NCBI GenBank assembly: GCA_018268955.1
Contig: JAFDVO010000008.1
Span: 22,988-86,987 of the forward strand
Reading direction: 5' to 3'
DNA length: 64,000 nucleotides
From: Acidobacteriota bacterium
GTDB lineage: Bacteria > Acidobacteriota > Vicinamibacteria > Vicinamibacterales > CAVVIG01
The notes beneath the pieces were generated by a model. That model was not told where the DNA came from. It did no database searches and saw nothing but the letters and a program-made list of their open reading frames with translations. Made by a program: the position numbers and the translations under genes. This document shows positions 6,581-34,553 of the stretch, piece after piece; the stretch's first letter is position 1, and each line of letters begins with the position of its first letter.

Positions 6581-8911
6581 ATGGCAAAGACGATGAGAGC
6601 TGTGTGGGCGGCCGTGGCAGCGGCCATGGCGATGAGTGCGGGCGCGGCGCAGGCGCAGGGACAGGTCCAGGCGACCGGCGCGGCGTCGGTCGGCGAACTG
6701 CCAATTCCTGTGGCCCCGAAGACGATCGTGCGCGAGAACGGCAAGGTGGTCGTGCGCGCGATCCGGCTGACCGAACCGCTGAAGGTCGATGGCCGCCTCG
6801 ACGAGTCCGTGTACGAGCAGAACGAACCGGCCGATGGGTTCATCCAGACCGTGCCGGCGAATGGGCAGCCCGTGTCCGAGCGGACCGAGGCGTGGGTGAT
6901 GTACGACGACAGGTACATCTACATTGCCGCGAAGCTGTACGACTCGGCCCCGCCAGAGAAGTGGGTGGCGAACGAGCTCCGGCGCGACACGAACCAGCTG
7001 CGTCAGAACGACATGTTCGGCGTGCTGCTCGACACGTTCCACGACCGCCGCAACGGCTACAACTTCTACACGAACCCGCTCGGGGGCTTTACCGACCAGC
7101 TCGTCACGGACGAAGGCAACCCGAACGCCGACTGGAACCCCGTGTGGGAAGTGCGGCCGGGCCGATTCGATGGCGGCTGGACCACGGAGATCGCGATCCC
7201 GTTCAAGTCGATCCGCTACATCGCCGGCAAGAACCAGGCGTGGGGCATCCAGATGCGACGGTCGATCCGCCGCAAGAACGAGTGGGCGCACCTGACCGCA
7301 CTGCCGGCGGCCAACGGTGGACCGAACAGCGTGTTCCGCATCTCGCAGGCGGCGACGCTGGTCGGGCTCGACCTGCCGCAGCAGAGCGCGAACATCGACG
7401 TGAAGCCCTACGGCATCGTCACCTCGACGACCGACCGGCTGAAAAACCCGCAGGTCAACAACGACCTGACCGGCAGCTACGGCGGCGACATCAAGTACGG
7501 CATCACCGCGAACCTGACGGCGGACGTGACCATCAAGACCGACTTCGCGCAGGTCGAGGTCGACGAGCAGCAGCTGAACCTCACGCGCTTCAGCATCCAG
7601 TTCCCAGAGAAGCGCGACTTCTTCCTCGAGGGGCGCGGCATCTTCGACTTCGGCAAGGCGGGCGCGAACAGCGGCGGCGCCACACTCGGCTTCGGCAGCG
7701 GCGGCAACAGCAGCCCGTCGACCGGCTCGCCGACGTTCTTCTACAGCCGGCGCATCGGGCTCGAAGCCGGGCGGGCCATTCCGATCCGCGCTGGCGGGCG
7801 CCTGACCGGCCGTGTCGGGAAGTACACGATCGGCGCGCTGAACCTGGAGACAGGCGACGAGCCGGTTGCCGCGACGCCGGCCACGAACTTCACGGTGTTC
7901 CGCCTGAAGCGCGACCTGTTCCGCCGCAGCAGCATCGGGACGATGATCACGAACCGCGATCATTCGACGCTGGTGAAGGGCGCCTCCAACCTCGCGTACG
8001 GCGTGGACGGCCTGTTCTCGTTCTTCAACGACCTGAACATGGGCGGGTACGTCGCACGCTCCGACGTGGAGGGACGGAACACGAACAACACGAGCTATCA
8101 GGGACGGCTCGACTGGGCGCCCGATCGTTACGGTGTGCGCGTGGACTACCTGAAGGTCGGCCAGAACTACAGCCCAGAGGTCGGCTTCACGAACCGCAGC
8201 AACTTCCGGCGCTCGTTCGCGTCGGCCCGCTTCAGCCCGCGTCCGAAGCGGAGCAAGCGCGTGCGCAAGTACACGTCGGAAGGCACCTACGAGTACCTGG
8301 TGACCGACACGACCGGGCGCCTCGAATCGCGCGCGGCTGCCGGACGCTTCCTGATCGAGAAGCAGAGCAGCGACCTGATCAGCGTCGTCGCCACGAACCG
8401 CTACGAGTACCTCGCGCGGCCCTTCACGGTCGCCCAGGGCGTGACGATTCCGGTCGGCGGCTACACGTTCTCGGACCTCACGGCCACCTACGGGTTCGGC
8501 CAGCAGCGCCGGCTCTCGGGCAGCCTCGCCTATCAGGTGGGGCATTTCTACAACGGCGACATCAACGCCGTGAGCTTCAGCACGGGACGGTTCGCGATCC
8601 GCAAGAACTGGTCGCTCGAGCCCACCTTCACCGTCAACCACGTGTCGTTGCCTGCCGGCACGTTCACGAACGCGGTGATTGTGGCGCGCACGGACTACGG
8701 GTTCAATCCACGACGCTTCGTGAGCGCACTCGTGCAGTACTCGTCGGCGACGCACGTGTTCAGCTCGAACTTCCGCTTCCGCTGGGAGTATCAGCCCGGC
8801 AGCGAGCTGTTCGTCGTCTACACCGACGAGCGCGATACGACGAGGCCCGGGTACCCCGACCTGAGGAACCGTGCGTTCGTCGTGAAGGTGAACCGCCTGT
8901 TCCGCTTCTGA
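6581..8911 (+). CDS. DUF5916 family protein with CBM9-like domain (paralog 2)
   Basis: Starts 5 nt after paralog 1. Signal peptide MAKTMRAVWAAVAAAMAMSAGAAQAQ. Carries the same conserved blocks as paralog 1. The last ~150 nt are nearly identical at nucleotide level to paralog 1 and end in NRLFRF. Confidence 0.9.
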   Translation: MAKTMRAVWAAVAAAMAMSAGAAQAQGQVQATGAASVGELPIPVAPKTIVRENGKVVVRAIRLTEPLKVDGRLDESVYEQNEPADGFIQTVPANGQPVSERTEAWVMYDDRYIYIAAKLYDSAPPEKWVANELRRDTNQLRQNDMFGVLLDTFHDRRNGYNFYTNPLGGFTDQLVTDEGNPNADWNPVWEVRPGRFDGGWTTEIAIPFKSIRYIAGKNQAWGIQMRRSIRRKNEWAHLTALPAANGGPNSVFRISQAATLVGLDLPQQSANIDVKPYGIVTSTTDRLKNPQVNNDLTGSYGGDIKYGITANLTADVTIKTDFAQVEVDEQQLNLTRFSIQFPEKRDFFLEGRGIFDFGKAGANSGGATLGFGSGGNSSPSTGSPTFFYSRRIGLEAGRAIPIRAGGRLTGRVGKYTIGALNLETGDEPVAATPATNFTVFRLKRDLFRRSSIGTMITNRDHSTLVKGASNLAYGVDGLFSFFNDLNMGGYVARSDVEGRNTNNTSYQGRLDWAPDRYGVRVDYLKVGQNYSPEVGFTNRSNFRRSFASARFSPRPKRSKRVRKYTSEGTYEYLVTDTTGRLESRAAAGRFLIEKQSSDLISVVATNRYEYLARPFTVAQGVTIPVGGYTFSDLTATYGFGQQRRLSGSLAYQVGHFYNGDINAVSFSTGRFAIRKNWSLEPTFTVNHVSLPAGTFTNAVIVARTDYGFNPRRFVSALVQYSSATHVFSSNFRFRWEYQPGSELFVVYTDERDTTRPGYPDLRNRAFVVKVNRLFRF

Positions 8912-8921
8912 GGATCTGACA

Positions 8922-8993
8922 GGCCATGGGCGATGGGCGACAGGCCGCGCCCGCAGTCGTGACGGGCCTGCGGCCCATGCCGATTGCCATCAG
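8922..8993. repeat. GGCNNTG heptamer run with an imperfect inverted partner
   Basis: Starts 11 nt after TGA 8909-8911: ggccatg ggcgatg ggcgaca ggccgcg. A downstream partial reverse complement follows (gcctgcggcccatgccgattgccatc). Confidence 0.6.
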
Positions 8994-9016
8994 TGCTTCT
9001 GTACCCTGAGGTCAAT

Positions 9017-11272
9017 GTGCGACGCGCGTGTCTGACCACGATCCTCGCTGCGCTGGCTGCGACCGCGGCCGCCCAGCAGCCCCCTGACCCCGTTCCACCG
9101 GCGATCATCGCGAGAAACGAGGCCCGACAGGCGACCGTTCGGGCGGTGAAGCTCGACGAGCCGCTGCGCATCGACGGCCGTCTGGACGAGGCGATCTACT
9201 CGTCGATCACGCCGATCACGGACTTCATCCAGACGCTGCCTCGGAACGGCGAGGATCCGACCGAGAAGACCGAAGCGTGGGTGATGTTCGACGGCGAGCG
9301 GTTCTACGTCGCTGCCCGCTGCTGGGACTCGGCGCCGCCAGCGAAATGGGTCGCCAACGAGATGCGCCGCGATGCGAATCAGGTCCGGCAGAACGATCAC
9401 TTCGGCTTCATGATCGACACGTTCCACGATCGGCGGAACGGGTACGTCTTCTACTCGAACCCGGTCGGCGGCCGCATCGATCTCACCGAAGCGGACGAGG
9501 GGAACTCGAACGCCGACTGGAACCCGGTCTGGGAAGTGCGCACCGGCCGCTTCGAGGGCGGCTGGACGATCGAGATGGCCGTGCCGTTCAAGTCGATCCG
9601 CTACATCTCCGGCGAAGGCCAGACGTGGGGCATCCAGATGCGCCGGGCGATCCGCCGGAAGAACGAGTGGGCGCACCTCACGCCGCTGCCGACCGTGATG
9701 GGGGGATCCCAGGGGTTCTTCAGGATCTCGGCCGCCGCGACGCTGGTCGGGCTCGACCTGCCGCCGGCCAGCCGGAACATCGAGTTGAAGCCCTACGGCA
9801 TCGCACGCTCGACAACGGATCGCGTCGCGTCACCGCTCGTGAACAACAAGGGTGAAGGAGACTTCGGCGTCGACGCGAAGTACGGCATCACCGCCAACCT
9901 CACCGCCGACTTCACGTACAACACCGACTTCGCACAGGTCGAAGTGGACGAGCAGCAGGTGAACCTCACCCGTTTCTCGCTGCAGTTTCCTGAGAAGCGG
10001 GAGTTCTTCCTCGAGGGACGCGGCATCTTCAGCTTCGCGTCGTTCCCAACCACTGGTTCATCAGGCGGTGGGTCATCGACGAGCACCGTCCCGCTGCTGT
10101 TCTACAGCCGGCGCATCGGCCTGAACGGCGGGCGCGTAGTTCCGATCAACGTGGGCGGACGCGTGACCGGCAAGGTCGGCAAGTTCAGCCTCGGACTGCT
10201 GAACATCCAGACCGGCGAGGAGTCGGCCTCGAAGTCGCCGTCGACGAACTTCAGTGTTGTCCGCGTGAAGCGCGACGTCTTCCGGCGGAGCGCGATCGGC
10301 GCCATGGTCACGAACCGCTCGCAGTCCGCTGACGTGCCGGGGGCCGCGAACCAGGCGTACGGCCTGGACGGGGTGTTCAACTTCTTCGGCGACCTCACGA
10401 TGGGCGGCTACTACGCGCGCACGGAGACCGACAACGTGAGCGGCGACGGCTCCAGCTACCAGGCGCGCGTCGAGTACGCGCCGGACAAGTACGGTGCGCA
10501 GTTCGAGCGGGTCAAGGTCGGCGACGCGTTCAACCCGGAGGTCGGCTTCCTGCGGCGACGCAACTTCGAGCGCACGTTCGGCGAAGTGCGCTACAGCCCG
10601 CGGCCCAAACGCATCAGAGGCATTCGCCAGGTCACGATGACGGCGGGCGTGGAGTACATCGAGGGCAGCACGTCGAAGCGCATGGAGTCGCGGCAGCAGA
10701 CCGGGCGCATCAACGTGGAGCGGGAGAACAGCGACCAGTTCTCCTTCGAAGGCGGCACGAACTTCGAGTTCCTGCCGTCGCCGTTCAGGGTCGCACGCAA
10801 CGTCACGATTCCGTCCGGCGGCTACGGGTTCAACGACTGGACGGCGCGCTACGCGTTCGGTCAGCAGCGGCGGATCTCAGGCACCGTGCAGTTCCAGAAG
10901 GGGCAGTTCTACAACGGGCACATCAACGCGCTCACTGTGAGCGGCGCGCGCGTGTCGGTGATGACCCGCCTCTCGGTCGAGCCGAGCGTCTCGGTGAATG
11001 CGGTCACGCTGCCGGCGGGCGACTTCACGACCACCGTGCTGCGCGCCAGGTCCGACTACGCGTTCTCGCCGTTGATGTTCGTAAGCGGCCTGGTGCAGTA
11101 CAGCTCGAACGACCGGCTCTTCTCGACCAACCTGCGCTTCCGCTGGGAATACCTGCCGGGCAGCGAGCTCTTCGTCGTCTACACCGACGAGCGCGACACG
11201 ATACCTGTTGGTTTCCCGACGCTGAAGAACCGCGCGCTGGTCGTGAAGGTGAATCGGCTGTTCAGGTTCTAA
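9017..11272 (+). CDS. DUF5916 family protein with CBM9-like domain (paralog 3)
   Basis: Lies in ORF 8984-11272, which has a TTG start. I prefer GTG 9017 because it gives the signal peptide MRRACLTTILAALAATAAAQQ and clears the upstream repeat. Same conserved blocks; C-terminus NRLFRF. Confidence 0.85.
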   Translation: MRRACLTTILAALAATAAAQQPPDPVPPAIIARNEARQATVRAVKLDEPLRIDGRLDEAIYSSITPITDFIQTLPRNGEDPTEKTEAWVMFDGERFYVAARCWDSAPPAKWVANEMRRDANQVRQNDHFGFMIDTFHDRRNGYVFYSNPVGGRIDLTEADEGNSNADWNPVWEVRTGRFEGGWTIEMAVPFKSIRYISGEGQTWGIQMRRAIRRKNEWAHLTPLPTVMGGSQGFFRISAAATLVGLDLPPASRNIELKPYGIARSTTDRVASPLVNNKGEGDFGVDAKYGITANLTADFTYNTDFAQVEVDEQQVNLTRFSLQFPEKREFFLEGRGIFSFASFPTTGSSGGGSSTSTVPLLFYSRRIGLNGGRVVPINVGGRVTGKVGKFSLGLLNIQTGEESASKSPSTNFSVVRVKRDVFRRSAIGAMVTNRSQSADVPGAANQAYGLDGVFNFFGDLTMGGYYARTETDNVSGDGSSYQARVEYAPDKYGAQFERVKVGDAFNPEVGFLRRRNFERTFGEVRYSPRPKRIRGIRQVTMTAGVEYIEGSTSKRMESRQQTGRINVERENSDQFSFEGGTNFEFLPSPFRVARNVTIPSGGYGFNDWTARYAFGQQRRISGTVQFQKGQFYNGHINALTVSGARVSVMTRLSVEPSVSVNAVTLPAGDFTTTVLRARSDYAFSPLMFVSGLVQYSSNDRLFSTNLRFRWEYLPGSELFVVYTDERDTIPVGFPTLKNRALVVKVNRLFRF

Positions 11273-13984: not shown

Positions 13985-16831
13985 ATGCCCGCATCGTTCG
14001 CGCTGCCCGCGGCCTTCTTTCTCTCAGGCGCCGCAGGGCTCATGTTCCAGGTGGTCTGGCTCTATCGCTGCGGCCTCGTCCTCGGGAGCAGCCTCCCGGC
14101 TGTCACGGTCGTCCTCTCTGCGTTCATGGCCGGGGTTGGCGCAGGCAGCGCCGCGGCTGCGCGCGCCGGCGATCGGGTTGCGCATCCCATCCGTGCGTAC
14201 ATCACGCTCGAACTCCTGGTCGCCATCACAGGCATCGCCGTCAGCGTGTTGCTGCCGCACGTCGGGGCAGTCGTGGGTCGCGTGACTCACCTGACGACTT
14301 CCGCGGCGACCCTCAATGCAGCACGGCTGGCCATCGCGTTCGGGTTGCTCATCGTGCCAGCGGGCGCCATGGGAGCGACGTTGCCGCTGCTCGTTTCCGT
14401 GCTGGCGAAGCGGGGAGCGGCGTTCGGTCCCGCACTGGGTCGGCTCTACGGTTGGAACACGCTCGGGGCGGTGGTCGGCGTGATCGGTGCAGAAGTCCTC
14501 TTCATCGGCGCGGCTGGTGTGACCGGCACGGCGTGCGCCGCCGCAGGCCTCAACCTGTGCGCGGCTTTGCTCGCAGGTTCGATTCGATCGGCTGACGCCG
14601 ACGAGATCCCGAACGCGGGACACCAGCAGGACGAGCAGCGTGCTGGCACGCCGCAGGACCGCGGCGCGGTCCGCTGGTTGCTCCTGTCCACTGCCGTCGC
14701 CGGTGGCGCGCTGCTCGGGCTCGAGGTGGTCTGGTTCCGCTTCCTGTCGATGTACGTGCTCGTCACCACGCTCGCCACGAGCGTGATGCTGGCAGCCGTA
14801 CTCTCCGGCATCGGCGTTGGCGGCATCGTCGGCGCAATCTGGCTCGGTCGTGGACGCAACGCCGCGACGTGGTTGGCAGTGCTGGCCTGCGCGACCGGGC
14901 TCAGTGTGATCGGCTCGTTCACCTTGTTCAGCTTCGTCACCCAGGGCACGCAAGTCGGCGCATGGACCAGCGTCCTGTGGTTCGCGTGCGAGCTGACCGT
15001 GATCACGTCGCTGCTTTCCGGAGCGTTGTTCACGCTGACCGGCGACGCGCTGCACCGAACCGGGCTTGGCGCTGCCGAGGCGACCGGCTCACTGGCTCTT
15101 GCGAACACACTCGGCGCCATCGTCGGTCCCGCGCTGGCCACATGGGTGCTGCTGCCCAACCTTGGGATCAAGGGGAGCATCACCACCTTCGCACTCGCCT
15201 ACGGCATCGTCGGCGCACTCGCCGCGCTGGGCCTTCGCGTCCGGCGCGCTCCCATCGCCATGCGCCGCGTTCCGTCACTGGTGATGGGCGCCGTGCTGGC
15301 TGTCGGTGTGGCACTCCTTCCGCTCGGCGCAGCAGACTCGGCGTATTTCCTGCGCGCCGCTGCTGCGTATGCGGACGATGGTTCCGAGGTCGTGGCGACG
15401 CGCGAGGGCACTGCCGAGACGCTGTTCGTCATGCAGCAGCGGTGGCTCGGTCGGCCCGTGTACAGCCGTCTGGTCACGAACGGCTTTTCGATGTCCGGCA
15501 CCGCCCTGCAGGGGCAGCGGTACATGCGTGGGTTCGCATACTACCCGATGCTCTTTCACGACGGTCCTCTCCGGAATGCGTTGGTCGTCTGCTACGGCGT
15601 TGGGGTGACCGTCGGCGCCGTCACGCACATCCCGTCGGTCGAAACCATCGATGTGGTCGAGATCTCACGCGAGATACCGGAGCTGAGCGACGTGATCTAC
15701 GAGGCCGGTTCGCGCCCGCTCGAGGACCCGCGCGTACGCCTCCATACGGAAGACGGCCGCTTCTTCCTGCAGACCACCGCCGACGCGTTCGACCTCATCA
15801 CCGGTGAGCCGCCGCCGCCTCGCACGCCAGGGACGGTGAACATCTACACGCGCGAGTACTTCGAGCTGGTGCGGAGCCGCCTGCGCGAAGGAGGCATCGC
15901 CACCTACTGGGTGCCGGTGGCTCGCCCCAACCCGGGCACGGACGTCAACACGATCGTCAAGGCGTTCTGTGACGTGTTCAGCGACTGCTCGCTGTGGAAT
16001 GCGACGCCATTCGACCTGATGCTGGTCGGTTCGCGTGGCACGACAGGGCCGAGGTCGCTTGCGGACCTCTCCCGGCCCTGGCAGACACCGGGGCTCGAGG
16101 CGCGGCTGCGGGAAGTGGCCTTGGAGCGGCCGGAGCAGATCGGCGCGACGTTCATCGGGGATGCCGCGTACCTGAAGACCCTCACCCAGGAGACGCCGCC
16201 GCTGGTAGACGACTTCCCGCAGCGTCTGCGTCCGCACCCTGGACGTCCGTCGCTGTCGGATCCGGGTTACGGCCGCGATCAGGCGGTCACGACGATGTAC
16301 GACTCGGTGCTGAGCGTGGAGCGGGCGCGCACGGCGTTCTCGACCTCGGCGTTCGTGCGGGGGCTGTTTCCGCCCGACCTCATCGAGCGGTCGCTGCCGT
16401 ACTTCGAGCAGCAGCGGATCATCAACCGCGTCTACTGGGAAGGCGGCCAGCCGCTGCGCCAGATCGAGGACCTCGACGGCGTGTTGTCCGGCACGACCCT
16501 TCGCACGCTGCCGTTGTGGATCCTCGGGAGCGACGAGGTGAAGCAGCGCATCGCGGAAACCACGCGCGACGATGTGAGTGGTGCGGTGGAATATGCCCGC
16601 GCGCTGCGTGCGTTGTCAGGACGGGACTTCGCCGGCGCCTCACGCTGGCTGTCGGTGGCACTCGAGCGCGGATTCACCGGCCCCACGGCCAGCCCACTGC
16701 TGGCCTACGCGTCGATGAAGAGCGGCAACACGGTGCTCGCGCAGCAGCTTGCCGCAGCCGCGCACGCCTCTTCAGACGACGAACGGCACTTCTGGGCGTG
16801 GATGGGGAAGGCGTTGGACGGCAGACGTTAG
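13985..16831 (+). CDS. Fused MFS-like membrane domain / spermidine-synthase-like domain protein with a helical-repeat C-terminal region
   Basis: Lies in ORF 13874-16831. ATG 13985 gives MPASFALPAAFFLSGAAGLMFQVVWLYR, typical of this fused family by recall. About 12 helices are followed by a methyltransferase-fold region (VVCYGVGVTVGA...DLITGEPPPP). Confidence 0.8.
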   Translation: MPASFALPAAFFLSGAAGLMFQVVWLYRCGLVLGSSLPAVTVVLSAFMAGVGAGSAAAARAGDRVAHPIRAYITLELLVAITGIAVSVLLPHVGAVVGRVTHLTTSAATLNAARLAIAFGLLIVPAGAMGATLPLLVSVLAKRGAAFGPALGRLYGWNTLGAVVGVIGAEVLFIGAAGVTGTACAAAGLNLCAALLAGSIRSADADEIPNAGHQQDEQRAGTPQDRGAVRWLLLSTAVAGGALLGLEVVWFRFLSMYVLVTTLATSVMLAAVLSGIGVGGIVGAIWLGRGRNAATWLAVLACATGLSVIGSFTLFSFVTQGTQVGAWTSVLWFACELTVITSLLSGALFTLTGDALHRTGLGAAEATGSLALANTLGAIVGPALATWVLLPNLGIKGSITTFALAYGIVGALAALGLRVRRAPIAMRRVPSLVMGAVLAVGVALLPLGAADSAYFLRAAAAYADDGSEVVATREGTAETLFVMQQRWLGRPVYSRLVTNGFSMSGTALQGQRYMRGFAYYPMLFHDGPLRNALVVCYGVGVTVGAVTHIPSVETIDVVEISREIPELSDVIYEAGSRPLEDPRVRLHTEDGRFFLQTTADAFDLITGEPPPPRTPGTVNIYTREYFELVRSRLREGGIATYWVPVARPNPGTDVNTIVKAFCDVFSDCSLWNATPFDLMLVGSRGTTGPRSLADLSRPWQTPGLEARLREVALERPEQIGATFIGDAAYLKTLTQETPPLVDDFPQRLRPHPGRPSLSDPGYGRDQAVTTMYDSVLSVERARTAFSTSAFVRGLFPPDLIERSLPYFEQQRIINRVYWEGGQPLRQIEDLDGVLSGTTLRTLPLWILGSDEVKQRIAETTRDDVSGAVEYARALRALSGRDFAGASRWLSVALERGFTGPTASPLLAYASMKSGNTVLAQQLAAAAHASSDDERHFWAWMGKALDGRR

Positions 16832-16879
16832 ACGTTGGACGTTAGAACTTAGAACTCAGAAGTCAGAATGCAGAACGTC
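16824..16879. repeat. In-phase heptamer run beginning inside the last codons of the upstream gene
   Basis: Units are gacgtta gacgttg gacgtta gaactta gaactca gaagtca gaatgca gaacgtc. The gene stop TAG is at 16829-16831, and a second in-frame TAG at 16850. A weaker periodic tail extends to about 16928. Confidence 0.75.
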
Positions 16880-17011
16880 GGTGGGTCAGTCAGTCCCGCC
16901 CGCCTTGCCCGCCCAGCCTGCCCTTTCAGGACCACTCGCTGTCTTCGCGTGTCCGTGACCTCCGTGGTAGTGCCGTTGGCCGCGATTGCGGCGCGACCCG
17001 CGCGATCCGTC

Positions 17012-17095
17012 CAGAGCCCAGAGCCCCGAGCCCGCAGCCCAAAGCCCGCAGCCCAAAGCCTATGGCCCATGGCCCAGCGCCCACCGCCCATTGCC
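17012..17095. repeat. Twelve in-phase heptamers, NNNNGCC on plus and GGCNNNG in the sense of the peroxidase gene
   Basis: Units are cagagcc cagagcc ccgagcc cgcagcc caaagcc cgcagcc caaagcc tatggcc catggcc cagcgcc caccgcc cattgcc. The array ends 11 nt from the stop codon at 17107-17109. Confidence 0.85.
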
Positions 17096-17106
17096 CTCGA
17101 CGGGTG

Positions 17107-18009
17107 TCAGCGAGCGGAGGAGAGTGTCCTGAGGAACGCCACGAGGTCCCGCTTGTCCTCGTCAGGGAGATCCAGGCGCTGCATGTCGCGATCGAGGTTC
17201 GGGTTCGGACGGCCGCCGCGGTCGTAGTAGTCGACGACCTCTTCGAGCGTCGCGAGGGATCCGTCGTGCATGTAAGGCGCTGTCCTGCCGACCTCTCGCA
17301 GCGTCGGTGTCTTGAACGCGCCGCGGTCTTCAGGCTTGCCCGTCACCTCGAATGCCCCGTCATCGACAAAGCGGCCCGACGCTCCTGCCTCGGACGAGGC
17401 GGGCACCCACGCGATGCCGGTATTGTGCAGCTTCTCGTCCGTGAAGTTCGTGCCGACGTGGCACATCAGGCAGTTGCCGCGTCCCTGGAACACGCGCAGG
17501 CCGTTACGTTCCTGTGCTGACAGCGCGCTGCGCTCCCCGTTGTTGAAGCGGTCATAGCGCGTGTCGCCGGACATCTGCGCGCGCACGTAGGTGGCGAGTG
17601 CCGCGGCGATCTTGTCGACAGGCAGTTCCACCCTTTGCGAGGCTTCTTCAAGAGTGAGATCCATCTCGTTTGGATCCTGAATGGGCATCAGGACCTGCTG
17701 TTCGAGCGTCGCAGCGCGCCCATCCCAGAAGAACACGCGTCCCCACACGCGATTAAGGATCGTCGGCGAGTTGCGTCGACCCTTGCGACCGAATACGCCA
17801 GGGGACACAGCGTCCGGCTTCGTGAACGCGCGCTCCGGATCGTGGCAGGAGGTGCACGCGATCGTGCCGTCTTTCGACAGGCGTGTATCCGCGAAGAGCC
17901 GCCGCCCGAGCTCAATCTTCTCCGGCGTGATCGGATTCGCTTCAGGGACCGGCAGCGTGGTGCCGAGGCCGAGCGGGATCGCGACTGCGGCGAGTGCCAG
18001 GAGCCTCAC
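17107..18009 (-). CDS. Di-haem cytochrome c peroxidase (CCP/MauG family)
   Basis: 300-aa ORF with a GTG start. Two CxxCH motifs (CTSCHDPERAF and CLMCHVG), a signal peptide, and the conserved tail PYMHDGSLATLEEVVDYY. Confidence 0.9.
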   Translation of the reverse strand: MRLLALAAVAIPLGLGTTLPVPEANPITPEKIELGRRLFADTRLSKDGTIACTSCHDPERAFTKPDAVSPGVFGRKGRRNSPTILNRVWGRVFFWDGRAATLEQQVLMPIQDPNEMDLTLEEASQRVELPVDKIAAALATYVRAQMSGDTRYDRFNNGERSALSAQERNGLRVFQGRGNCLMCHVGTNFTDEKLHNTGIAWVPASSEAGASGRFVDDGAFEVTGKPEDRGAFKTPTLREVGRTAPYMHDGSLATLEEVVDYYDRGGRPNPNLDRDMQRLDLPDEDKRDLVAFLRTLSSAR

Positions 18010-18034: not shown

Positions 18035-18285
18035 GGCTCCAGGCTCCGGACTTCGGGCTCCGGTCGTTGTCGGCTGCGGGCAAGGATCGGCAGGCAGGGG
18101 GAGGGCGGGGCAGGCAGGCGGTCAGGGCTGGTGGGGCTGGTGGGGCTGGTGGGACTGATGCGGGCTTCAGGCTCCAGACCTCGGGCTTCAGGCCGGTCGG
18201 CTTCAGGCCGGACACCACGAGTGTCGCAGCCGGAAGCCGACAAGGCCGAGAGCCTGTAGCCTGGAGCCCAGAGCCTGAAGTTCGG
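18035..18285. repeat. Composite array: heptamers, three perfect 9-mers, then inverted GGCTTCA/TGAAGCC arms
   Basis: Heptamers from 18035: ggctcca ggctccg gacttcg ggctccg. GGCTGGTGG occurs three times at 18126-18152. Then gggcttcaggctccagacctcgggcttcaggccggtcggcttcaggccgg faces ccggaagccgacaaggccgagagcctgtagcctggagcccagagcctgaag. Confidence 0.7.
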
Positions 18286-21500: not shown

Positions 21501-21740
21501 TTGGATGCGATGGCGGGCGACCGATCGGAGGGGCTGCGGATCTGGCGGCTTCGCAAGCGGCAGTTGTATGTGGACGCCGAACTGCGGCCAGCACCAGACA
21601 CAGGGGAATGGGACCTGCTGGTCTACTACGGGACGACGCTCACATCGTCGAAGCGCTTCGCCACGCGGAACGAGGCGGTCGACGAGGGGCGTGCGCGAAG
21701 GGCGGAGCTGGAGCGGGAGGGGTGGACGTTCCACTGGTAA
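21501..21740 (+). CDS. Small hypothetical protein (79 aa, or 76 aa from ATG 21510)
   Basis: The ORF has a high third-position G+C pattern consistent with coding. No family recognised. It ends ...LEREGWTFHW. The start codon is uncertain (TTG 21501 or ATG 21510). Confidence 0.5.
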   Translation: MDAMAGDRSEGLRIWRLRKRQLYVDAELRPAPDTGEWDLLVYYGTTLTSSKRFATRNEAVDEGRARRAELEREGWTFHW

Positions 21741-21766
21741 CGCACATTAGAGCAGTGTGCGTTACC
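21736..21766 (+). terminator. 11-bp perfect hairpin overlapping the stop codon of the small ORF
   Basis: ggtaacgcaca (21736-21746) pairs with tgtgcgttacc (21756-21766) around a 9-nt loop. There is no U-tract, so terminator function is only a guess. Confidence 0.4.
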
Positions 21767-21784
21767 AATGAAGCGTCCGAGAGA

Positions 21785-21875
21785 GGCTACAGACTGCTGG
21801 CTCCAGGCTCCGGGCCGAGTCGGCTCCGGCCTGAAGCCGACCAACCCTGAAGCCCGGAGCCCGAAGCCTGGAGCC
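21785..21875. repeat. Thirteen in-phase heptamers, mirror-symmetric between two convergent genes
   Basis: Units are ggctaca gactgct ggctcca ggctccg ggccgag tcggctc cggcctg aagccga ccaaccc tgaagcc cggagcc cgaagcc tggagcc. Positions 21799-21814 pair with 21860-21875 (16 bp, 1 mismatch). The array ends 1 nt from the stop at 21877. Confidence 0.85.
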
Positions 21876-21876
21876 T

Positions 21877-23049
21877 CTACGCGATCGTGATCTTCCTGGG
21901 GAACTGTCCGTTGTCCTCGAGGAACGTCTTCTTGTTCGCGAGGTCTGCGGCGGTCGGCTGCACGACGCCGTTGGTGTCCGTGACGCGCGAGACGAGCGTG
22001 TGCTCACCGGCAGCGGGGGTGTTCCAGTCGAACGTGAACAGCTTCCATCCGTAGGTGGCCGACGTGTCCGGCGAGAGCGTCGCCTTCTGCCAGGCTCCAC
22101 CGTCGACCTGCACCTCCACCGAGCGGATCGGTGTGCCGTCGTTCAGGACGAAGCCCGTGACCTTGTAGTTCTTGTTGCCGGAGGTGGTCACGCGTGCAAT
22201 CACCGACTTGAGCCGCATCTTCGAGACGCCGGTCTCCTTCGGCATCACGACGCCGCCGATGTTCTCCTCGCGCAGCGTGCGATACCAGCGCGTCTGGAAC
22301 TTGCCCATGTAGGGCTCGGCCTGCACGTGGATGTTGGACAGCCACTTCACGTTCGCGACGCCGTACCACCCCGGCACCAGCAGCCGGAGCGGCGAGCCCT
22401 GGTGGACCGTGAGCGGCTGGCCGTTGAGGGCCCAGGCGAGGAACGGCTCGCCCGACAGCGCCTGCTCACGCGTGAGGCTGCGGCCGAACTGCTGCTCGAC
22501 CGTGAACTTCTGGGTGCGCCACTCGATCTCTTCCTGTCCCTTGTCCGCGCCGAAGAAGACGAACTCTCGCGCGTCGCGCGAGACGCCTGCCTGATCGAGG
22601 ACGAGCCGCAGCGGGATGCCGGTCCACTTGCCGTTGCCCGCAAACCCCTGCACCAGCCGCGGGCTGTTGCCCGAGCACTCGAAGCCGGCGATCAGCTCGC
22701 GGTTGCCCATCTTCTTCAGATCGTCGAGCGACAGCGAGAGCGGCGAGGTCACCATGCCGCTGACCTTCAGGCGCCAGCTGGCGGCATCTACCGTGGGATG
22801 ACCGTAATGCTGCGTCGTGAAGAACTGATCGGGCGGCGTGTACGGGCCGTCGATCTTCCGGATGTCGTAGTTCCGGGTCGTGGCGTTCGGATTCGGGTTG
22901 AAGTTGGCAGGGAAGTCGCTGAAGGGCACCACGGTCTCGCCCTGCGCCAGCGCGGGGAGCGTGAACCCGGGGAGGTTGGCCACCGACAGGCCGATGCCGG
23001 CAAGGCCGAGCGTCTTCAGGATGTCGCGGCGCGACTGTGCAGGGGCCAT
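21877..23049 (-). CDS. Tat-exported molybdopterin-dependent oxidoreductase (sulfite-oxidase family)
   Basis: 390-aa ORF with the twin-arginine signal MAPAQSRRDILKTLGLAGIGL, GGAGGA upstream of the ATG, and Mo-binding plus dimerisation-domain-like sequence. Confidence 0.85.
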   Translation of the reverse strand: MAPAQSRRDILKTLGLAGIGLSVANLPGFTLPALAQGETVVPFSDFPANFNPNPNATTRNYDIRKIDGPYTPPDQFFTTQHYGHPTVDAASWRLKVSGMVTSPLSLSLDDLKKMGNRELIAGFECSGNSPRLVQGFAGNGKWTGIPLRLVLDQAGVSRDAREFVFFGADKGQEEIEWRTQKFTVEQQFGRSLTREQALSGEPFLAWALNGQPLTVHQGSPLRLLVPGWYGVANVKWLSNIHVQAEPYMGKFQTRWYRTLREENIGGVVMPKETGVSKMRLKSVIARVTTSGNKNYKVTGFVLNDGTPIRSVEVQVDGGAWQKATLSPDTSATYGWKLFTFDWNTPAAGEHTLVSRVTDTNGVVQPTAADLANKKTFLEDNGQFPRKITIA

Positions 23050-23836: not shown

Positions 23837-23948
23837 GAAATGCAGAAATGCACAAATGCAGAAATGCACAGGTGCAGAAACGCACAGACGCAGAAGCGCA
23901 CAGACGCAGAAACGCACGACCGCTGAAGTGCACACATGCGGAAGCGCC
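23837..23948. repeat. Fourteen in-phase octamers (GAAAYGCA/CAnAYGCA), alternating with a 16-nt super-period
   Basis: Units are gaaatgca gaaatgca caaatgca gaaatgca caggtgca gaaacgca cagacgca gaagcgca cagacgca gaaacgca cgaccgct gaagtgca cacatgcg gaagcgcc. Confidence 0.85.
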
Positions 23949-23976
23949 CGGCCCCGGAGACGATGGCGGAGACGCT

Positions 23977-24075
23977 GGAATGCAGGAAGGATGGAGGGGG
24001 AGATTGGAGGGTGGAGGTTGGGGTTGGAGTGGGGAACACCGGCTCCCTGCCCCGACCTCAGACCTCCGTCCTCTG
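23977..24075. repeat. G-rich TGGAGGN heptamers facing a C-rich partner (GACCTCN)
   Basis: G-rich side: ggaatgc aggaagg atggagg gggagat tggaggg tggaggt tggggtt ggagtgg. C-rich side: ccctgccccgacctcagacctccgtcctctgcc. The two sides are imperfectly complementary. Confidence 0.65.
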
Positions 24076-24096
24076 CCTTCGCTCGTGCCGCGAGCG

Positions 24097-24300
24097 CTAC
24101 TTCTTGATCTTCTCGCCGATGTCCTCGATGAACTCACCGGCCTTGCGACGGCCGCGGCCGATCGCATCCTGCGTGTCACCGGCGGCTTCATCGGCAATGC
24201 CTTCGTTCTTCATCCGCTCGTTGTCCGTCAGATCGCCCGCGGCCTGCTTCATCTTGCCCTTGAGCGCCTGTGCCTTGCCTTCCATCTCATCGCGGTTCAT
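24097..24300 (-). CDS. CsbD-family general stress protein
   Basis: 67 aa: MNRDEMEGKAQALKGKMKQAAGDLTDNERMKNEGIADEAAGDTQDAIGRGRRKAGEFIEDIGEKIKK. This is the typical CsbD pattern. GGAGGGG lies upstream. Confidence 0.9.
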   Translation of the reverse strand: MNRDEMEGKAQALKGKMKQAAGDLTDNERMKNEGIADEAAGDTQDAIGRGRRKAGEFIEDIGEKIKK

Positions 24301-24681: not shown

Positions 24682-26949
24682 ATGTTCCGATCTGTTTCCA
24701 TCGTTGGTGCCCTTCTCTGCCTCACCGCCTCGCTTGCCAGCGCGCAATCGTCAGGTCGCCAGCCTGCGGCGGCCACTGACCCGGTCGTCACCCGCACGCC
24801 GGAAGGGCAGGTGACGATACGGGCCATCCGCGTCGCGCGCCCTCTCGTTCTCGACGGCCAGTTGAAGGAGGAGATCTACGCGCAGGTGCCGCCGATCGAC
24901 GGCTTCCTCCAGCAGGAACCTCTCGAGGGCGAGCCGGCGACCGAACCGACTGAGGCGTGGCTGTTCTACGACGACCGATACATCTACGTCGCCGCGCACC
25001 TGCACGACTCGCAGCCCGACCGCGAGATCATCACCGAGATGCGGCGCGACGGTCAGGGGACGAACGACAACGAGAGCTTCGGCGTCGTGTTCGACACGTT
25101 CCACGATCGACGTAACGGATTCCTGTTCCAGATCAGCCTCGCTGGCGGCCTCTACGATGGCTACATCACCGATGAACGGGACATGAACCGTGACTGGAGT
25201 ACGGTCTGGGACGCGCGCACCGCCCGCGTCGACGACGGGTGGACGGTGGAGATGGCCATCCCTTTCAAGTCGCTCAGGTTTCCTCCCGGGTCGCACGACT
25301 GGGGTGTGAACCTGAAGCGCGTGGTGAAGTGGAAGAACGAGAACCAGTACCTTACCCGCATGCCGGGCGCCCTTGGTCGCCGCGCGATCAACAAGCTCTC
25401 GTCTGCCGCCACGCTGGTCGGCCTCGAAACGCCGCAGGCGCGCCGAAACTTCGAGCTGAAGCCCTACGCGATCGGCGGCGTCACCACCGATCGTCCGGTC
25501 GGCGCCTCCTCGTCGAACGCCGCGAAGAGGAACGTCGGCGGTGACATGAAGATCGGCATCACGGACGGCATCACGGCGGACGTGACGTACAACACCGACT
25601 TCGCGCAGGTCGAGGAAGACGAGCAGCAGGCGAACCTCACGCGCTTCAGCGTGCTGTTCCCGGAAAAGCGGGAGTTCTTCCTCGAAGGGCAGGGCATCTT
25701 CGCGTTCGGCGGCGTGTCGAACCGGCCTCCAGGATCGGGCGCAACCAACTTCGGCAATCCGATCCCCGCCGACGTGCCGGTGATGTTCTTCAGCCGACGC
25801 ATCGGGCTGCAGGACGGCAAGGAGGTCCCGATCGACGTCGGCGGACGCGTCACGGGCAAGGCTGGCAACTACAGCATCGGCGTGATCGACATCAGGACCG
25901 GCGACGTGCCCGCCCGCGCGCTCGACCCCACCAACTTCAGCGTGGTTCGGGTGAAGCGCGACATCCTCCGTCGCAGTGCGGTCGGCATCCTCTTCACCGA
26001 TCGCTCCCGCTCGACGTTCGGCCCCGGACACGGGAGCACGGTCGGCCTGGACGGCGTCTTCTCCTTCTTCCAGAACCTGAACTTCAACAGCTACGTGGCC
26101 GCCAGCGACAACCCCGGGCTCTCGGGCGAGAACCTCAGCTACCGCGGACAGCTCGATTACAACGCAGACAAGTACGGACTGCAGGTCGAGCGCCTGACGC
26201 TCGACCAGAACTTCCGTCCGGATCTCGCGTTCACCCGGCGGACCGCGTTCGCCCGCAACTCCGCGTATGCCAGATACAGCCCGCGCCCGCACTCGACGAC
26301 CGTGCGGAAGATGTTCTACGAGGCGCAGTTCGACTACATCACGGACCCGAGCAACCGCCTGCAGTCACGGCAGGCGCAGGTGGCGGTCCGCGCCGAGTTC
26401 CAGAACAGCGACGCGGCCGCGATCGAACTGCAGCAGAACTACGAGTCGCTTGACAAGCCGTTCGAGGTCTCGCCTGGCGTGTCCATCCCGGTGGGTGGCT
26501 ACGGGTTCCGTGAAGCGCACGTGATCTACAACTTCGGCCCGCAGCGTCCGCTCTCGGCGAACGTGTCGCTCGAGCGCGGCGAGTTCTACAACGGGACGCG
26601 CACCGGCGTCAGCGCATCGCGTGGGCGCGTGCAGATTACCCCGCAACTCATGGTGGAACCCGGGATCACCCTCAACATCGTCCGCATGCCGGAAGGGGAC
26701 TTCACGTCCACGCTGGTGACCGGCCGGGCGACCTACACCGTGACCCCGCGCATGAGCGCCAGCGCGCTGATGCAGTACAACTCCACCGCGAGCACGTTCA
26801 ACACGAACATCCGTTTCCGCTGGGAGTACCAGCCGGGCAGCGACCTGTTCGTCGTGCTCACCGACAACCGCGACACGCTGACAACCGGGTTTCCTGCGCT
26901 GCGCAACCGCGCGTTCATCGTGAAGTTCACGCGGTTGTTCCGCATGTGA
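24682..26949 (+). CDS. DUF5916 family protein with CBM9-like domain (paralog 4)
   Basis: Signal peptide MFRSVSIVGALLCLTASLASAQ. Conserved blocks WDARTARVDDGWTVEMAIPFKSLRF and TDFAQVEEDEQQANLTRFSVLFPEKREFFLEGQGIF. C-terminus TRLFRM. Confidence 0.9.
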   Translation: MFRSVSIVGALLCLTASLASAQSSGRQPAAATDPVVTRTPEGQVTIRAIRVARPLVLDGQLKEEIYAQVPPIDGFLQQEPLEGEPATEPTEAWLFYDDRYIYVAAHLHDSQPDREIITEMRRDGQGTNDNESFGVVFDTFHDRRNGFLFQISLAGGLYDGYITDERDMNRDWSTVWDARTARVDDGWTVEMAIPFKSLRFPPGSHDWGVNLKRVVKWKNENQYLTRMPGALGRRAINKLSSAATLVGLETPQARRNFELKPYAIGGVTTDRPVGASSSNAAKRNVGGDMKIGITDGITADVTYNTDFAQVEEDEQQANLTRFSVLFPEKREFFLEGQGIFAFGGVSNRPPGSGATNFGNPIPADVPVMFFSRRIGLQDGKEVPIDVGGRVTGKAGNYSIGVIDIRTGDVPARALDPTNFSVVRVKRDILRRSAVGILFTDRSRSTFGPGHGSTVGLDGVFSFFQNLNFNSYVAASDNPGLSGENLSYRGQLDYNADKYGLQVERLTLDQNFRPDLAFTRRTAFARNSAYARYSPRPHSTTVRKMFYEAQFDYITDPSNRLQSRQAQVAVRAEFQNSDAAAIELQQNYESLDKPFEVSPGVSIPVGGYGFREAHVIYNFGPQRPLSANVSLERGEFYNGTRTGVSASRGRVQITPQLMVEPGITLNIVRMPEGDFTSTLVTGRATYTVTPRMSASALMQYNSTASTFNTNIRFRWEYQPGSDLFVVLTDNRDTLTTGFPALRNRAFIVKFTRLFRM

Positions 26950-29444: not shown

Positions 29445-29645
29445 AACGCAGGAACGCAAGAACGCAGAAACGCAAAAACGCAGGAACGCAGGAACGCAGG
29501 AACGCAACGCAAGAACGCAGGAACGCAAGAACGCAAGACAGCGCGCTGGAAGATTCACGCAGTCACGCACGAGCGATTGCAGCATTCGTGCGCTCCTGTG
29601 AGCGTGCATTGTTGCATTCCTGCATTCCCGCATTCCCGCATTCCC
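29445..29645. repeat. ~200-nt imperfect palindromic element whose arms are octamer arrays
   Basis: Left arm 29445-29538 has twelve units of AACGCARR/ACGCARGA. A central bulged hairpin lies around 29556-29604. Right arm 29606-29645 has five units of GCATTCCY, whose reverse complement (RGGAATGC) matches the left unit at 6-7 of 8 positions. The element fills the gap between convergent stops at 29428 and 29651. Confidence 0.85.
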
Positions 29646-32804: not shown

Positions 32805-34361
32805 ATGCGGAGACTCATTCAGCTCGCCTCCACGACCACAGTGGCGATTGTCGGCGCCTGTGGAGTCCATGTGTTCACGCAGGGCACCACGTCCACGCTT
32901 GCGGATTGCACCGTTGCGAGCCTGCAGGCGAAGGCGCCGGCGGGGACGACGATCACGGGTGCGAAGGTGGTCGACGGTTCCGATCGAGTGCCGCGGCATT
33001 GCCAGGTGGATGGGCATGCTGCGACTCCTGGCAATGAGGTCAACTTCCGGCTTGGCTTCCCCGAGCGCTGGAACGGCAAGTACTACTTCGTAGGCGTCGG
33101 CGGCCTCGGCGGCAGCATCGGCTCACTGAACAAGGGGCTCGAGCGCGGCTACGCATCCGCATCCACCGATACCGGACACAGCGCGGACGATCAGAGCTGG
33201 GGCTCGAACCGCGCGAAGGAAATTGATTACGGCCATCGCGGGACGCACGCGACCGCCGTGGCGGGGAAGGCGCTCGCAGGCGCGTTCTACGGGCGCGCGC
33301 CGCAGCACGCCTATTTCGAAGGCTGCTCCAACGGCGGCCGGCAGGCGCTCATGGAAGTGCAGCGCTATCCGGAGGATTTCGACGGGATCATCGGCGGCGA
33401 TCCTGCCACCGGCACCCCGATGCAGGTGGGACGGGTGCTCGTCTATCAGAAGATGCTCGCGAAGCCTGAGAACTTCCTGCCCGCAGAGAAGATCGAGCTG
33501 CTCTCGAAGGCGACGCTGGCCGCGTGCGACAAGGCGGACGGCCTCAAGGATGGACTCGTCACCGATCCGCGTCGGTGCTCGTTCAAGCCCGAGTCGCTGA
33601 AGTGCAGCGGGGCCGATGGACCGAACTGCCTGAACGACGGACAGCTCGCAGTCGTGAAACAGATTTACGAGGGAGCCTCCATCAACGGCGAACCGTACGC
33701 GTGGGGGTTCCCGGTCGGGCACGAGGGCAGTGCCACGGGGTGGCGCGCGTGGATCTCGGGTCCGGAGGATCCGACGACGCAGGCGGACGGCACGCTCGCC
33801 TATACGGGGCGGCGGCTGCCGAGCGGGTACGGGCTCGCCGAGTCCAACATGCGATTCCTCGCGTTGGAGAACGACGATCCGGCTTTCAACTGGCGTGTCT
33901 TCAGGTTCCCGCAGGATCTCGCCCGGATGAAGACCATGAGCGACATCCTCAGCCCGCTCGATCCCGATCTGCGTCCGTTCAAGAACCGCGGCGGGAAGCT
34001 GCTCCTGTACCACGGATGGTCGGATCCGGCGATCAGCGCGTACGGGACCGTCGGCTATTACGACCGCGTGCTGAAGACCGTCGGCGGCCAGCAGCAGATG
34101 GACGTGTTCGCGAAGCTGTATCTCGTCCCTGGCATGCATCACTGCAGTGGCGGCCCAGGCCCGAACGAGTTCGACATGCTCACCGCTCTGGAGAACTGGG
34201 TGGAGAAGGGGCAGTCGCCGGGACCGGTGGTCGCCACACACCGCGAGAACAACGCGGTCACCCGCACGCGGCCGCTGTGTCCGCATCCGCAGGTCGCCCG
34301 CTACAGGGGGACGGGGAGCATCGATGACGCCGCGAACTTCACGTGCGAGGTGCCGCGGTAG
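32805..34361 (+). CDS. Tannase/feruloyl-esterase family alpha/beta hydrolase, secreted
   Basis: Lies in ORF 32700-34361; ATG 32805 gives MRRLIQLASTTTVAIVGACG. Nucleophile motif FEGCSNGGRQALMEVQRYPEDFDGIIGGDPA. Confidence 0.85.
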   Translation: MRRLIQLASTTTVAIVGACGVHVFTQGTTSTLADCTVASLQAKAPAGTTITGAKVVDGSDRVPRHCQVDGHAATPGNEVNFRLGFPERWNGKYYFVGVGGLGGSIGSLNKGLERGYASASTDTGHSADDQSWGSNRAKEIDYGHRGTHATAVAGKALAGAFYGRAPQHAYFEGCSNGGRQALMEVQRYPEDFDGIIGGDPATGTPMQVGRVLVYQKMLAKPENFLPAEKIELLSKATLAACDKADGLKDGLVTDPRRCSFKPESLKCSGADGPNCLNDGQLAVVKQIYEGASINGEPYAWGFPVGHEGSATGWRAWISGPEDPTTQADGTLAYTGRRLPSGYGLAESNMRFLALENDDPAFNWRVFRFPQDLARMKTMSDILSPLDPDLRPFKNRGGKLLLYHGWSDPAISAYGTVGYYDRVLKTVGGQQQMDVFAKLYLVPGMHHCSGGPGPNEFDMLTALENWVEKGQSPGPVVATHRENNAVTRTRPLCPHPQVARYRGTGSIDDAANFTCEVPR

Positions 34362-34452
34362 GGCGGAGGGCAGAGGTCAGGTCGGAGGTTGGAGGTCGGA
34401 GGTTGGGCCCAGAGCCCGGAGGCTGAAGCCCGGAGCCCGAAATCTCCAGGTT
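34362..34452. repeat. Thirteen in-phase heptamers starting at the first base after the stop codon
   Basis: Units are ggcggag ggcagag gtcaggt cggaggt tggaggt cggaggt tgggccc agagccc ggaggct gaagccc ggagccc gaaatct ccaggtt. The first half is GGAGGTY in the sense of the plus gene. The second half reads GGGCTYC in the sense of the minus-strand tRNA. Confidence 0.8.
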
Positions 34453-34464: not shown

Positions 34465-34553
34465 TGGTGCCGGAGGTGGGAATCGAACCCACACGAGGAG
34501 TAAACCTCACGGGATTTTGAGTCCCGCGCGTCTGCCAGTTTCACCACTCCGGC
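34465..34553 (-). tRNA. tRNA-Leu (anticodon CAA), with long variable arm and encoded CCA
   Basis: The reverse complement is GCCGGAGTGGTGAAACTGGCAGACGCGCGGGACTCAAAATCCCGTGAGGTTTACTCCTCGTGTGGGTTCGATTCCCACCTCCGGCACCA. The acceptor stem pairs GCCGGAG with CTCCGGC, the anticodon loop is CTCAAAA, the T-loop is GGTTCGATTCC, and the extra arm is class II. Confidence 0.95.

Follow-up and report, generated by a model that had tools for sequence, protein, structure and literature searches.

We analyzed a 64,000-nucleotide (nt) stretch of DNA from a soil member of the Vicinamibacterales (Acidobacteriota), referred to here as the window (G+C content, approximately 66%), and focused on a heptamer-repeat palindrome in the spacer between two genes that converge on each other. 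On the plus strand, a small conserved open reading frame (ORF) at 21510 to 21740 encodes, by the ORF list and its translation, 76 to 79 amino acids ending in WTFHW and the stop. This ORF had no Pfam family match, but it is a 76-amino-acid gene call on five other contigs and its C terminus is kept in the related loci L006 to L012. On the minus strand lies a molybdopterin oxidoreductase gene (21877 to 23049; stop codon, 21877 to 21879), whose 390-amino-acid, sulfite-oxidase-like product belongs to the Oxidored_molyb family (Pfam PF00174, E = 1.7e-42). An identical copy of this protein is found on five metagenome contigs, and its nearest relatives in named genomes are from Vicinamibacterales or Acidobacteriota metagenome-assembled genomes (MAGs), at 85 to 90% identity. 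The 136-nt spacer between the two stops (21741 to 21876) has two parts: first a stem-loop of the small ORF (21724 to 21778) and then the palindrome (21782 to 21878), which we refer to as the focal element.

Two heptamer arrays around a family core

The focal element is an imperfect palindrome of GGCTYCR heptamers, approximately 97 nt long and assigned to neither strand, whose 44-nt arms (21782 to 21825 and 21835 to 21878) are 75% complementary about a center near 21830. The left arm opens with two degenerate outer units, GGCTACA GACTGCT (21785 to 21798, plus strand), whose partners in the minus-strand fold are the outermost units of the right arm, and continues with the array GGCTCCA GGCTCCG GGCCGAG (21799 to 21819, plus strand; lag-7 identity, 0.71). 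The right array (21848 to 21875) reads GGCTCCA GGCTTCG GGCTCCG GGCTTCA on the minus strand and begins 1 nt past the Oxidored_molyb stop; Tandem Repeats Finder (TRF) reported this arm as 21846 to 21876, with a period of 7 and 4.4 copies. Between the arrays lies a nonperiodic family core (21819 to 21841), an overlapping inverted pair of GTCGGCTYCNGGC with one copy on the plus strand (21819 to 21831) and one on the minus strand (21829 to 21841). Across 21785 to 21875, identity at lag 7 was 0.54, compared with 0.18 to 0.32 at other short lags, and none of 5,000 dinucleotide shuffles matched this value at any lag from 4 to 12. Furthermore, GGCTYCRGGCTYC occurs 15 times in the window versus 1.3 expected, and the core sequence occurs 12 times versus 2.8 expected, mostly within other GGCT palindromes. 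A tandem 7-nt unit in at least two to three copies, as in intergenic heptameric simple sequence repeats (SSRs), is thus present at the focal element. We conclude with high confidence that the element consists of two GGCTYCR arrays placed head-on between convergent genes around the family core.

An earlier note, made from the sequence alone, had described 21785 to 21875 as a mirror-symmetric lattice of 13 heptamers that runs in a single phase and exactly fills the gap between the genes. The sequence was quoted correctly and the period of 7 is real. However, only 7 of the 13 heptamers are in phase (GGCT at 21785, 21799, and 21806; AGCC ending at 21854, 21861, 21868, and 21875), and the lattice does not continue through the center, where lag-7 identity is 0.33 (21820 to 21847) and GGCT and AGCC are offset from the phase by 2 nt. 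A single phase common to both arms was seen in two of six family palindromes (chance of at least two of six, 0.21), so it was rejected as a family property, and the common phase of the focal arms looks like a coincidence. The lattice also covers only 91 nt of the 136-nt spacer. GGCTCCA GGCTYCG, which was said to follow each stop, does so on the minus strand after 1 nt (the right arm ends at 21875 and the stop begins at 21877, as had been noted), but on the plus strand it comes 58 nt after the stop, behind the small-ORF hairpin. A pairing of 16 bp with one mismatch between 21799 to 21814 and 21860 to 21875 was recovered by our inverted-repeat search as 17 nt with one mismatch (21799 to 21815 with 21859 to 21875).

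The perfect 11-bp hairpin that had been reported over the small-ORF stop was likewise found (21736 to 21746 with 21756 to 21766). Inverted-repeat search and folds showed it to be the core of the longer plus-strand stem-loop at 21724 to 21778, which overlaps the stop codon at 21738 to 21740. Because this stem-loop persists in L006, L008, and L009 with three pairs altered on both sides, the small ORF has a 3′ structure of its own.

RNA folding of the spacer, which the earlier note had named as a check, gave strong structures on both strands. The plus strand of 21720 to 21885 folded at −90.3 kcal/mol (z = −7.5) and the minus strand at −111.4 kcal/mol (z = −12.3); the palindrome alone had −55.4 kcal/mol with one G·U pair on the plus strand and −76.1 kcal/mol with six G·U pairs on the minus strand. 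In the minus-strand fold, the register is moved by one unit, and the tandem arms therefore tolerate slips of 7 nt. With high confidence, the pair of arrays is predicted to form an imperfect stem-loop of approximately 45 bp on either strand. A GC-rich stem-loop directly after the stops, as in an intrinsic terminator, is thus found at this site. No T or A run lies beside the stem (flanks, ...GCGTAG/AGGC and GCCTCT/CTCGGAC), and a terminator scan found nothing at the site. Rfam 15 at gathering score also gave no match there, the sole window match being a tRNA-Leu (34465 to 34553).

We next consider how the two arms relate to each other. The focal left arm forms 17 of 21 pairs with its own right arm and a mean of 17.8 with the right arms of 19 unrelated loci, and 17 of these 19 foreign arms pair with it at least as well as its own does. 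Because a focal arm gains nothing by pairing with its own partner rather than with a foreign one, the simplest reading is that the element is composed of two arrays from a single family, each belonging to one of the genes, which would be complementary by construction. Arm-to-arm coevolution was also rejected for a set of 20 palindromes (17.15 of 21 pairs with the own arm versus 16.44 with foreign arms; P = 0.12). True palindromes nevertheless exist in the GGCTYCR family as well, since in 5 of the 20 palindromes at most one foreign arm fits as well as the own arm does and since inverted partners occur behind a single gene in codirectional spacers (L082, L131, and L133). Approximately one-quarter of arrays have an inverted partner even in this setting. 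The proposal that such elements are built as gene-oriented halves rather than by palindrome insertion is thus partly supported: it agrees with the polarity of the arrays and with the convergent spacers that hold noncomplementary arrays (both described below), as well as with the cross-pairing of the focal arms, whereas the true palindromes speak against it.

Orientation of arrays at gene boundaries

The focal locus had been put forward as the cleanest example of gene-oriented halves. It is no evidence on its own, because any palindrome reads GGCT first in the sense of each flanking gene; the evidence on orientation therefore rests on single arrays elsewhere. As an independent sample, we used a metagenome scan for GGCTYCRGGCTYCRGGCTYC, which returned at least 120 contigs, and took arrays of at least three GGCTYCR units from contigs with a G+C content of at least 60%. 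Each array was turned to read GGCT, and the nearest gene boundary within 80 nt was recorded. All counts from this sample, here and below, are among the matches listed.

In this sample, 92 arrays were intergenic and 6 were genic. Of the 92 intergenic arrays, 62 had the nearest boundary 5′ of the array and 9 had it 3′ of the array (P = 7e-11). Arrays next to the stop of a same-strand gene (class A) numbered 33, at a median distance of approximately 9 nt, and several of them begin directly past TAA, TAG, or TGA. Arrays next to the start of an opposite-strand gene (class B) numbered 29, with the strand checked by codon score and the CAT start; classes C and D held 2 and 7 arrays. Arrays adjacent to stops were in the sense orientation in 33 cases versus 7 (P = 4e-5), and by unit type the polarity was 19:6 for GGCTT-rich and 13:1 for GGCTC-rich arrays. 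A complementary partner within 160 nt was found downstream of 19 of 74 arrays (26%) and upstream of 4 of 74. Likewise, for other unit families, arrays lying no more than 60 nt from a stop were G-rich in the sense of the gene by 20:4. We conclude with high confidence that each of the two focal arrays reads GGCTYCR on the strand leading away from its gene. This family-wide polarity is more interesting than the focal locus, which is an ordinary copy of the family.

The class B arrays include 18035 to 18061 in the window and arrays at L126, L137, L073, L062, and other loci, all with antisense GGCTYCR 4 to 65 nt upstream of start codons. The mRNA leaders of the corresponding genes carry (YGRAGCC)n, and with TGAAGCC units each of the three frames has a TGA shortly before the start.

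Two convergent spacers in the window hold noncomplementary arrays, each in the sense of its own gene. In the first, a CGTTAGA/AGAACTC array (16812 to 16876) that overlaps the last 20 nt of a plus-strand gene faces an unrelated array of approximately 12 GGGCNNN units (17011 to 17096) after a minus-strand cytochrome c peroxidase gene. In the second, three AGAACTC units (54179 to 54198) that start from the stop of a plus-strand glycosyltransferase gene face (CCAACCT)15 (54234 to 54340), which, read in the direction of the minus-strand gene, is AGGTYGG. Plus-strand RNA of the latter array is nearly free of G and unstructured (−30 kcal/mol versus −67 kcal/mol for the spacer). The orientation rule covers a tRNA gene too, because a GGGCTYC array (34360 to 34439) trails the minus-strand tRNA-Leu(caa) gene (34465 to 34553) in its own sense. 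This array adjoins an AGGTYGG array that trails a plus-strand tannase gene.

Self-folding was considered as an explanation of the polarity and was rejected. Only the sense strand of (GGCUUCR)n and (GGGCUCU)n folds, by G·U pairs, but arrays of the GGCTCC type, which fold symmetrically, are the more strongly oriented (13:1). Also set aside was a dedicated pairing of the complementary arrays at 17011 to 17096 and 18035 to 18061, which bracket the gene at 17107 to 18009. Their duplex was computed at −58.9 kcal/mol versus −39.6 ± 4.2 kcal/mol for shuffles, yet it was no better than duplexes with the arrays of other genes.

The window as a whole is rich in such repeats. TRF found the 7-nt units GGCTYCR, GGGCNNN, AGGTYGG/CCAACCT (15 copies), GGCGATG, AGAACTC, and CGTTAGA and the octamer units AACGCAGG, TGCATTCC, GAAACGCA, and TTCACCAA, and at least eight unrelated families of 7- or 8-nt units coexist in one genome. 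With high confidence, gene boundaries in this genome hold many tandem arrays of 7- and 8-nt units, and GGCTYCR is, with equal confidence, the commonest family among them. Among 26 high-GC loci, period-7 arrays were intergenic in 32 cases and genic in 12, in sequence that is 89% coding, and periods 4, 5, 10, and 11 were rare. Arrays are present in the window and in the Vicinamibacterales MAG loci L006, L007, L009, L011, L012, L014, and L018; single short arrays were found in L020, L027, and L029, and none were found in the other 15 loci analyzed, Bryobacterales loci among them. Within the window, five of six convergent spacers have arrays, compared with one of eight divergent spacers (P = 0.026). 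The GGCT palindromes share an architecture (alignment A1) that runs from the stop through (GGCTYCR)n, GGGCATGTCGGCTYCGG, a variable center, and CGAC to (YGRAGCC)n. It occurs near 11330, 12175, 12900, 18215, and 21830 and also in L007 and L009.

Several further arrays are described here in their own right. Unequal octamer arms (AACGCAGG in 12 copies at 29445 to 29535 and TGCATTCC in 5 copies at 29605 to 29645) fill a convergent spacer, and G·U pairing between them is possible only on the minus strand (−114.6 versus −79.7 kcal/mol). The sole array in a divergent spacer, nine copies of TTCACCAA at 58512 to 58586, adjoins the start of a PEMT/ICMT-like methyltransferase gene and belongs to the same octamer family as the palindrome at the molybdoenzyme site of L012 (GTTGGTGA, 7175 to 7284). 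An AGGTNGG/CCAACCT hairpin right after the stop of a CsbD-like gene (23973 to 24096) folds better as antisense, plus-strand RNA (−73.9 versus −48.9 kcal/mol) and is thus a predicted exception to any sense-strand RNA rule. The longest array seen for the GGCTYCR family is at L099 (6390 to 6514, reverse orientation), where the contig ends in at least 18 GGCTCCG units. Additionally, the window encodes five paralogous large DUF5916 proteins (4407 to 6575, 6602 to 8911, 8993 to 11272, 24811 to 26949, and 41698 to 43899), three of them in tandem.

Turnover of the arrays and proposed function of the stem-loop

Six assemblies were compared at the focal spacer, of which L004 reaches only 21799. In L001 to L005, which are of the same species, the spacer is identical save for one single-nucleotide polymorphism (SNP) in L001 at 21777, in the small-ORF hairpin. 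Between the same two stops in related genomes, L007, L009, and L011 have GGCT-type palindromes with differing unit variants and arm copy numbers, L012 has an octamer palindrome (GTTGGTGA in five copies and TCACCAAC in five), L008 has a plain GC hairpin, and L006 has a 61-nt spacer with no array. The earlier note had stated that an unrelated, nonperiodic sequence between conserved flanking genes would count against its view of the spacer, and this is the case in two of these six related genomes (L006 and L008). A structured element is therefore usual at the focal site, but its sequence turns over, and the element is dispensable, since L006 has no array there. At the neighboring TonB-receptor gene, the window has a full palindrome downstream; the orthologous gene end in L007, L009, and L011 has sense-oriented GGCTNTG arrays only, which in L009 and L011 are preceded by a small GC hairpin.

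Across 11.8 kb, three indels separate two strains with 99.4% identity, and all three are whole-unit changes in arrays (4 nt, 2 × 9 nt, and 4 × 8 nt). Slippage is directly evidenced by these indels, and we conclude with high confidence that replication slippage adds and removes whole units of the arrays. Length polymorphism, a mark of heptameric SSRs, was found at other arrays and in L007, L009, and L011; the focal array is invariant in the six assemblies. Relative to the window, L001 carries at 23837 to 23947 and 18125 to 18166 a 32-nt deletion (four octamers) and an 18-nt insertion (two 9-mers). Every unit of the 9-mer array (GGGCTGGTG) contains the Escherichia coli Chi octamer GCTGGTGG, from which we draw no inference. 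A difference in L004 at 24089 to 24127 was discarded as a scaffolding artifact with an N gap.

By analogy with repetitive extragenic palindromic (REP) sequences, we tentatively favor, with not quite even confidence, the reading that the focal hairpin is a product of replication slippage that functions as a REP-like 3′ stem-loop. Transcription of either gene beyond its stop would yield an RNA that folds into the long stem, in which pairing may slip by 7 nt and G·U pairs would be used on the minus strand. The stem would then be a barrier to 3′-to-5′ exonucleases and to read-through between the convergent genes and would leave a stable 3′ end. REP stem-loops in 3′ untranslated regions (UTRs) reportedly stabilize upstream mRNA, a result credited to Newbury et al. 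in 1987. Because the small ORF has its own conserved hairpin, the heptamer stem would serve mainly the molybdoenzyme transcript, whose stop is 1 nt away. The stem is probably not a canonical intrinsic terminator, since no U-tract trails it on either strand, and it is unlikely that the stem alone terminates RNA polymerase. The organism does use U-tract terminators, as judged from the one convincing hairpin with a T run at a gene end in the 64 kb (35713 to 35737; an 11-bp GC stem and TTTTT, after a CarD gene).

Several observations weigh against a REP-like stem-loop. There is no U-tract on either strand, even though the organism has at least one canonical terminator; L006, with the most similar protein (90% identity), lacks an array at the focal site; and own arms pair no better than foreign ones, so that no selection for pairing is apparent at the focal locus. 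Approximately three-quarters of the family arrays have no inverted partner, and a long hairpin therefore cannot be the general function of the family. The polarity also includes the 29 start-adjacent class B arrays, which a 3′-end function does not explain. Finally, a G·U versus C·A asymmetry was tried and rejected as a sign of the strand of function. At the focal element, it favors the minus strand by approximately 21 kcal/mol, but this folding advantage is not kept in the orthologues, and family palindromes in single-sense spacers show no systematic advantage of the sense strand.

Of the rival explanations, the one that survives best, which we still consider rather unlikely, is a nonadaptive by-product: slippage-prone intergenic simple-sequence DNA that owes its polarity to a transcription-linked mutational bias and in which the hairpin is accidental. 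The whole-unit indels between strains fit this explanation, as do the fast turnover with outright absence in L006 and L008, an own-arm complementarity no better than that between loci, and the lack of a sense-specific G·U signature in the family. Heptamer overrepresentation has also been ascribed to polymerase slippage (Mrazek et al. 2007, as far as cited in PMC4692102). However, the orientation and anchoring at gene boundaries (62:9 and a median of approximately 9 nt from stops) are hard to obtain from slippage alone, and only periods 7 and 8 show the bias, periods 4, 5, 10, and 11 being rare in the same spacers. Furthermore, two orthologous gene ends retain arrays in different species (approximately 87% protein identity), and the focal spacer is identical in six assemblies save for the SNP at 21777.

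A broader reading, which we regard as improbable, is that the 7- and 8-nt arrays would be lineage-wide, orientation-specific punctuation of gene boundaries, that is, polar signals for transcription or RNA fate (U-tract-independent termination or insulation, mediated by a protein or by R-loops) that evolve by slippage. RNA leaving a coding region, in sense past the stop or antisense past the start, would carry GGCUYCR or G-rich sequence, and RNA entering it would carry the complement; the focal hairpin would then be a special case in which two signals meet. If true, this would give a function to the long-unexplained heptamer repeats of bacteria.

It is also quite improbable that the arrays are oriented protein-binding tracts. 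Each 7-nt unit would be bound by a putative protein that recognizes RNA (such as a cold-shock or S1-domain protein) or DNA (such as a nucleoid or roadblock protein), the array would be a polar boundary mark, and the hairpin would be secondary. Two observations are consistent with this idea: the polarity is strict at stops (class A) as well as at starts (class B), and unit length stays fixed at 7 to 8 nt among unrelated unit sequences. The idea has been raised for the TAACTGA heptamers as well (PMC4679880), but the many unit sequences would demand many proteins or sequence-independent recognition.

A REP/REPIN-like mobile element, in which a palindromic unit is copied by a RAYT (TnpA_REP) transposase and inserted beside gene ends, is very unlikely. 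The family is multicopy and extragenic, with at least five copies in 64 kb; its hairpin form is frequent; and the inner core GTCGGCTYCNGGC is conserved in inverted pairs flanked by arms. However, the arms are variable-number tandem heptamers rather than a fixed sequence, most family arrays are single and have neither core nor partner, and at least eight unrelated 7- or 8-nt families behave alike. Orthologous sites change in situ, not by presence or absence with target duplications. No GTAG-type head was found in alignment A1, and a scan covering 46 of the predicted window proteins (all but 7) recovered neither a Y1 transposase nor one of any other type. A G-quadruplex element, as proposed for the heptamers of Xanthomonas and Nostoc, is extremely unlikely. 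In its favor, the outward strand of arrays is often the G-rich one (20:4), and the AGGTTGG-type arrays of the window are similar to quadruplex formers with two tetrads (thrombin aptamer). However, GGCTYCR holds GG doublets only and has almost no GC skew (0.0 to 0.2), and at the focal site a quadruplex would compete with a complementary partner and a very stable hairpin.

Relation to known repeat systems

Tandem heptamers have been recognized for decades as overrepresented in the intergenic DNA of bacteria, without an assigned function; among them, the cyanobacterial short tandemly repeated repetitive (STRR) heptamers, from around 1990, are parallel tandem heptamers. The Vicinamibacterales lineage is a clean test case for such repeats. 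It has many unit families per genome, arrays within a few bases of stops, and a 62:9 rule that applies at both gene ends, and at one orthologous site it offers a natural comparison among a GGCT palindrome, an octamer palindrome, a plain hairpin, and nothing. The arrays are also of use for annotation in that they mark gene ends and strand in Vicinamibacterales MAGs. A literature search found nothing specific on heptamer repeats in Acidobacteria or Vicinamibacter.

Like bidirectional intrinsic terminators, the focal element is a GC-rich stem-loop between converging stops that folds on both strands, but it has no A- or U-tract on its flanks, and its bulged stem of approximately 45 bp contrasts with the usual 5 to 15 bp. 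With the REP, BIME, and REPIN elements of Enterobacteria and Pseudomonas, the family shares its abundance, its extragenic position often just past stops, its hairpins in 3′ UTRs and intercistronic regions, and its inverted pairs, and the protection of mRNA 3′ ends by those elements is the functional model adopted here for the focal element. A REP is, however, a fixed 20- to 40-nt unit with a conserved head recognized by RAYT, whereas here the arms are variable and tandem and the arrays are mostly single.

Direct repeats of the heptamer TAACTGA are found in Beggiatoaceae, cyanobacteria, and Bacteroidetes (MacGregor 2015, PMC4679880). They too are intergenic tandem heptamers with a fixed orientation near gene boundaries, and the class B arrays likewise lie a few nucleotides upstream of starts. 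In contrast, the TAACTGA repeats are AT-rich, lie mostly upstream of starts, and are inverted in 1 of 170 sets, whereas the focal element follows stops and is inverted.

The closest parallel is with the intergenic heptameric SSRs GGGAATC of Xanthomonas and GGGGAYT of Nostoc sp. strain PCC 7120 (Rehm et al. 2015, PMC4692102). Heptamer overrepresentation had been noted earlier by Mrazek et al. (2007), as cited in the same paper. Approximately 90% of the Xanthomonas and Nostoc repeats are intergenic, with an average distance of 28 nt from the upstream ORF; few lie between divergent genes, and approximately 40% form convergent inverted pairs (PMC4692102). The intergenic enrichment and the convergent inverted pairs are both found here. 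In both systems, a 7-nt tandem unit lies in intergenic DNA near the end of the upstream ORF (28 nt there; a median of approximately 9 nt here, among the matches listed), with the same polarity (downstream of a gene on its coding strand, upstream of a gene on its noncoding strand), few arrays between divergent genes, and inverted pairs that form stem-loops between convergent genes (approximately 40% there; 26% here, among the matches listed). Copy number varies among close relatives in both. The differences are the phylum, Acidobacteriota, the units themselves, and the G3 tracts: the subclass that forms quadruplexes has at least four G3 tracts per array (Rehm et al. 2015), whereas the units here hold GG only, with an occasional GGG at unit junctions. 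Furthermore, at least eight unit families, including octamers, occur in one genome here, and the GGCT palindromes share a nonrepeat core. Taken together, these comparisons place the focal element with a known kind of repeat, that of the Xanthomonas and Nostoc heptamers.

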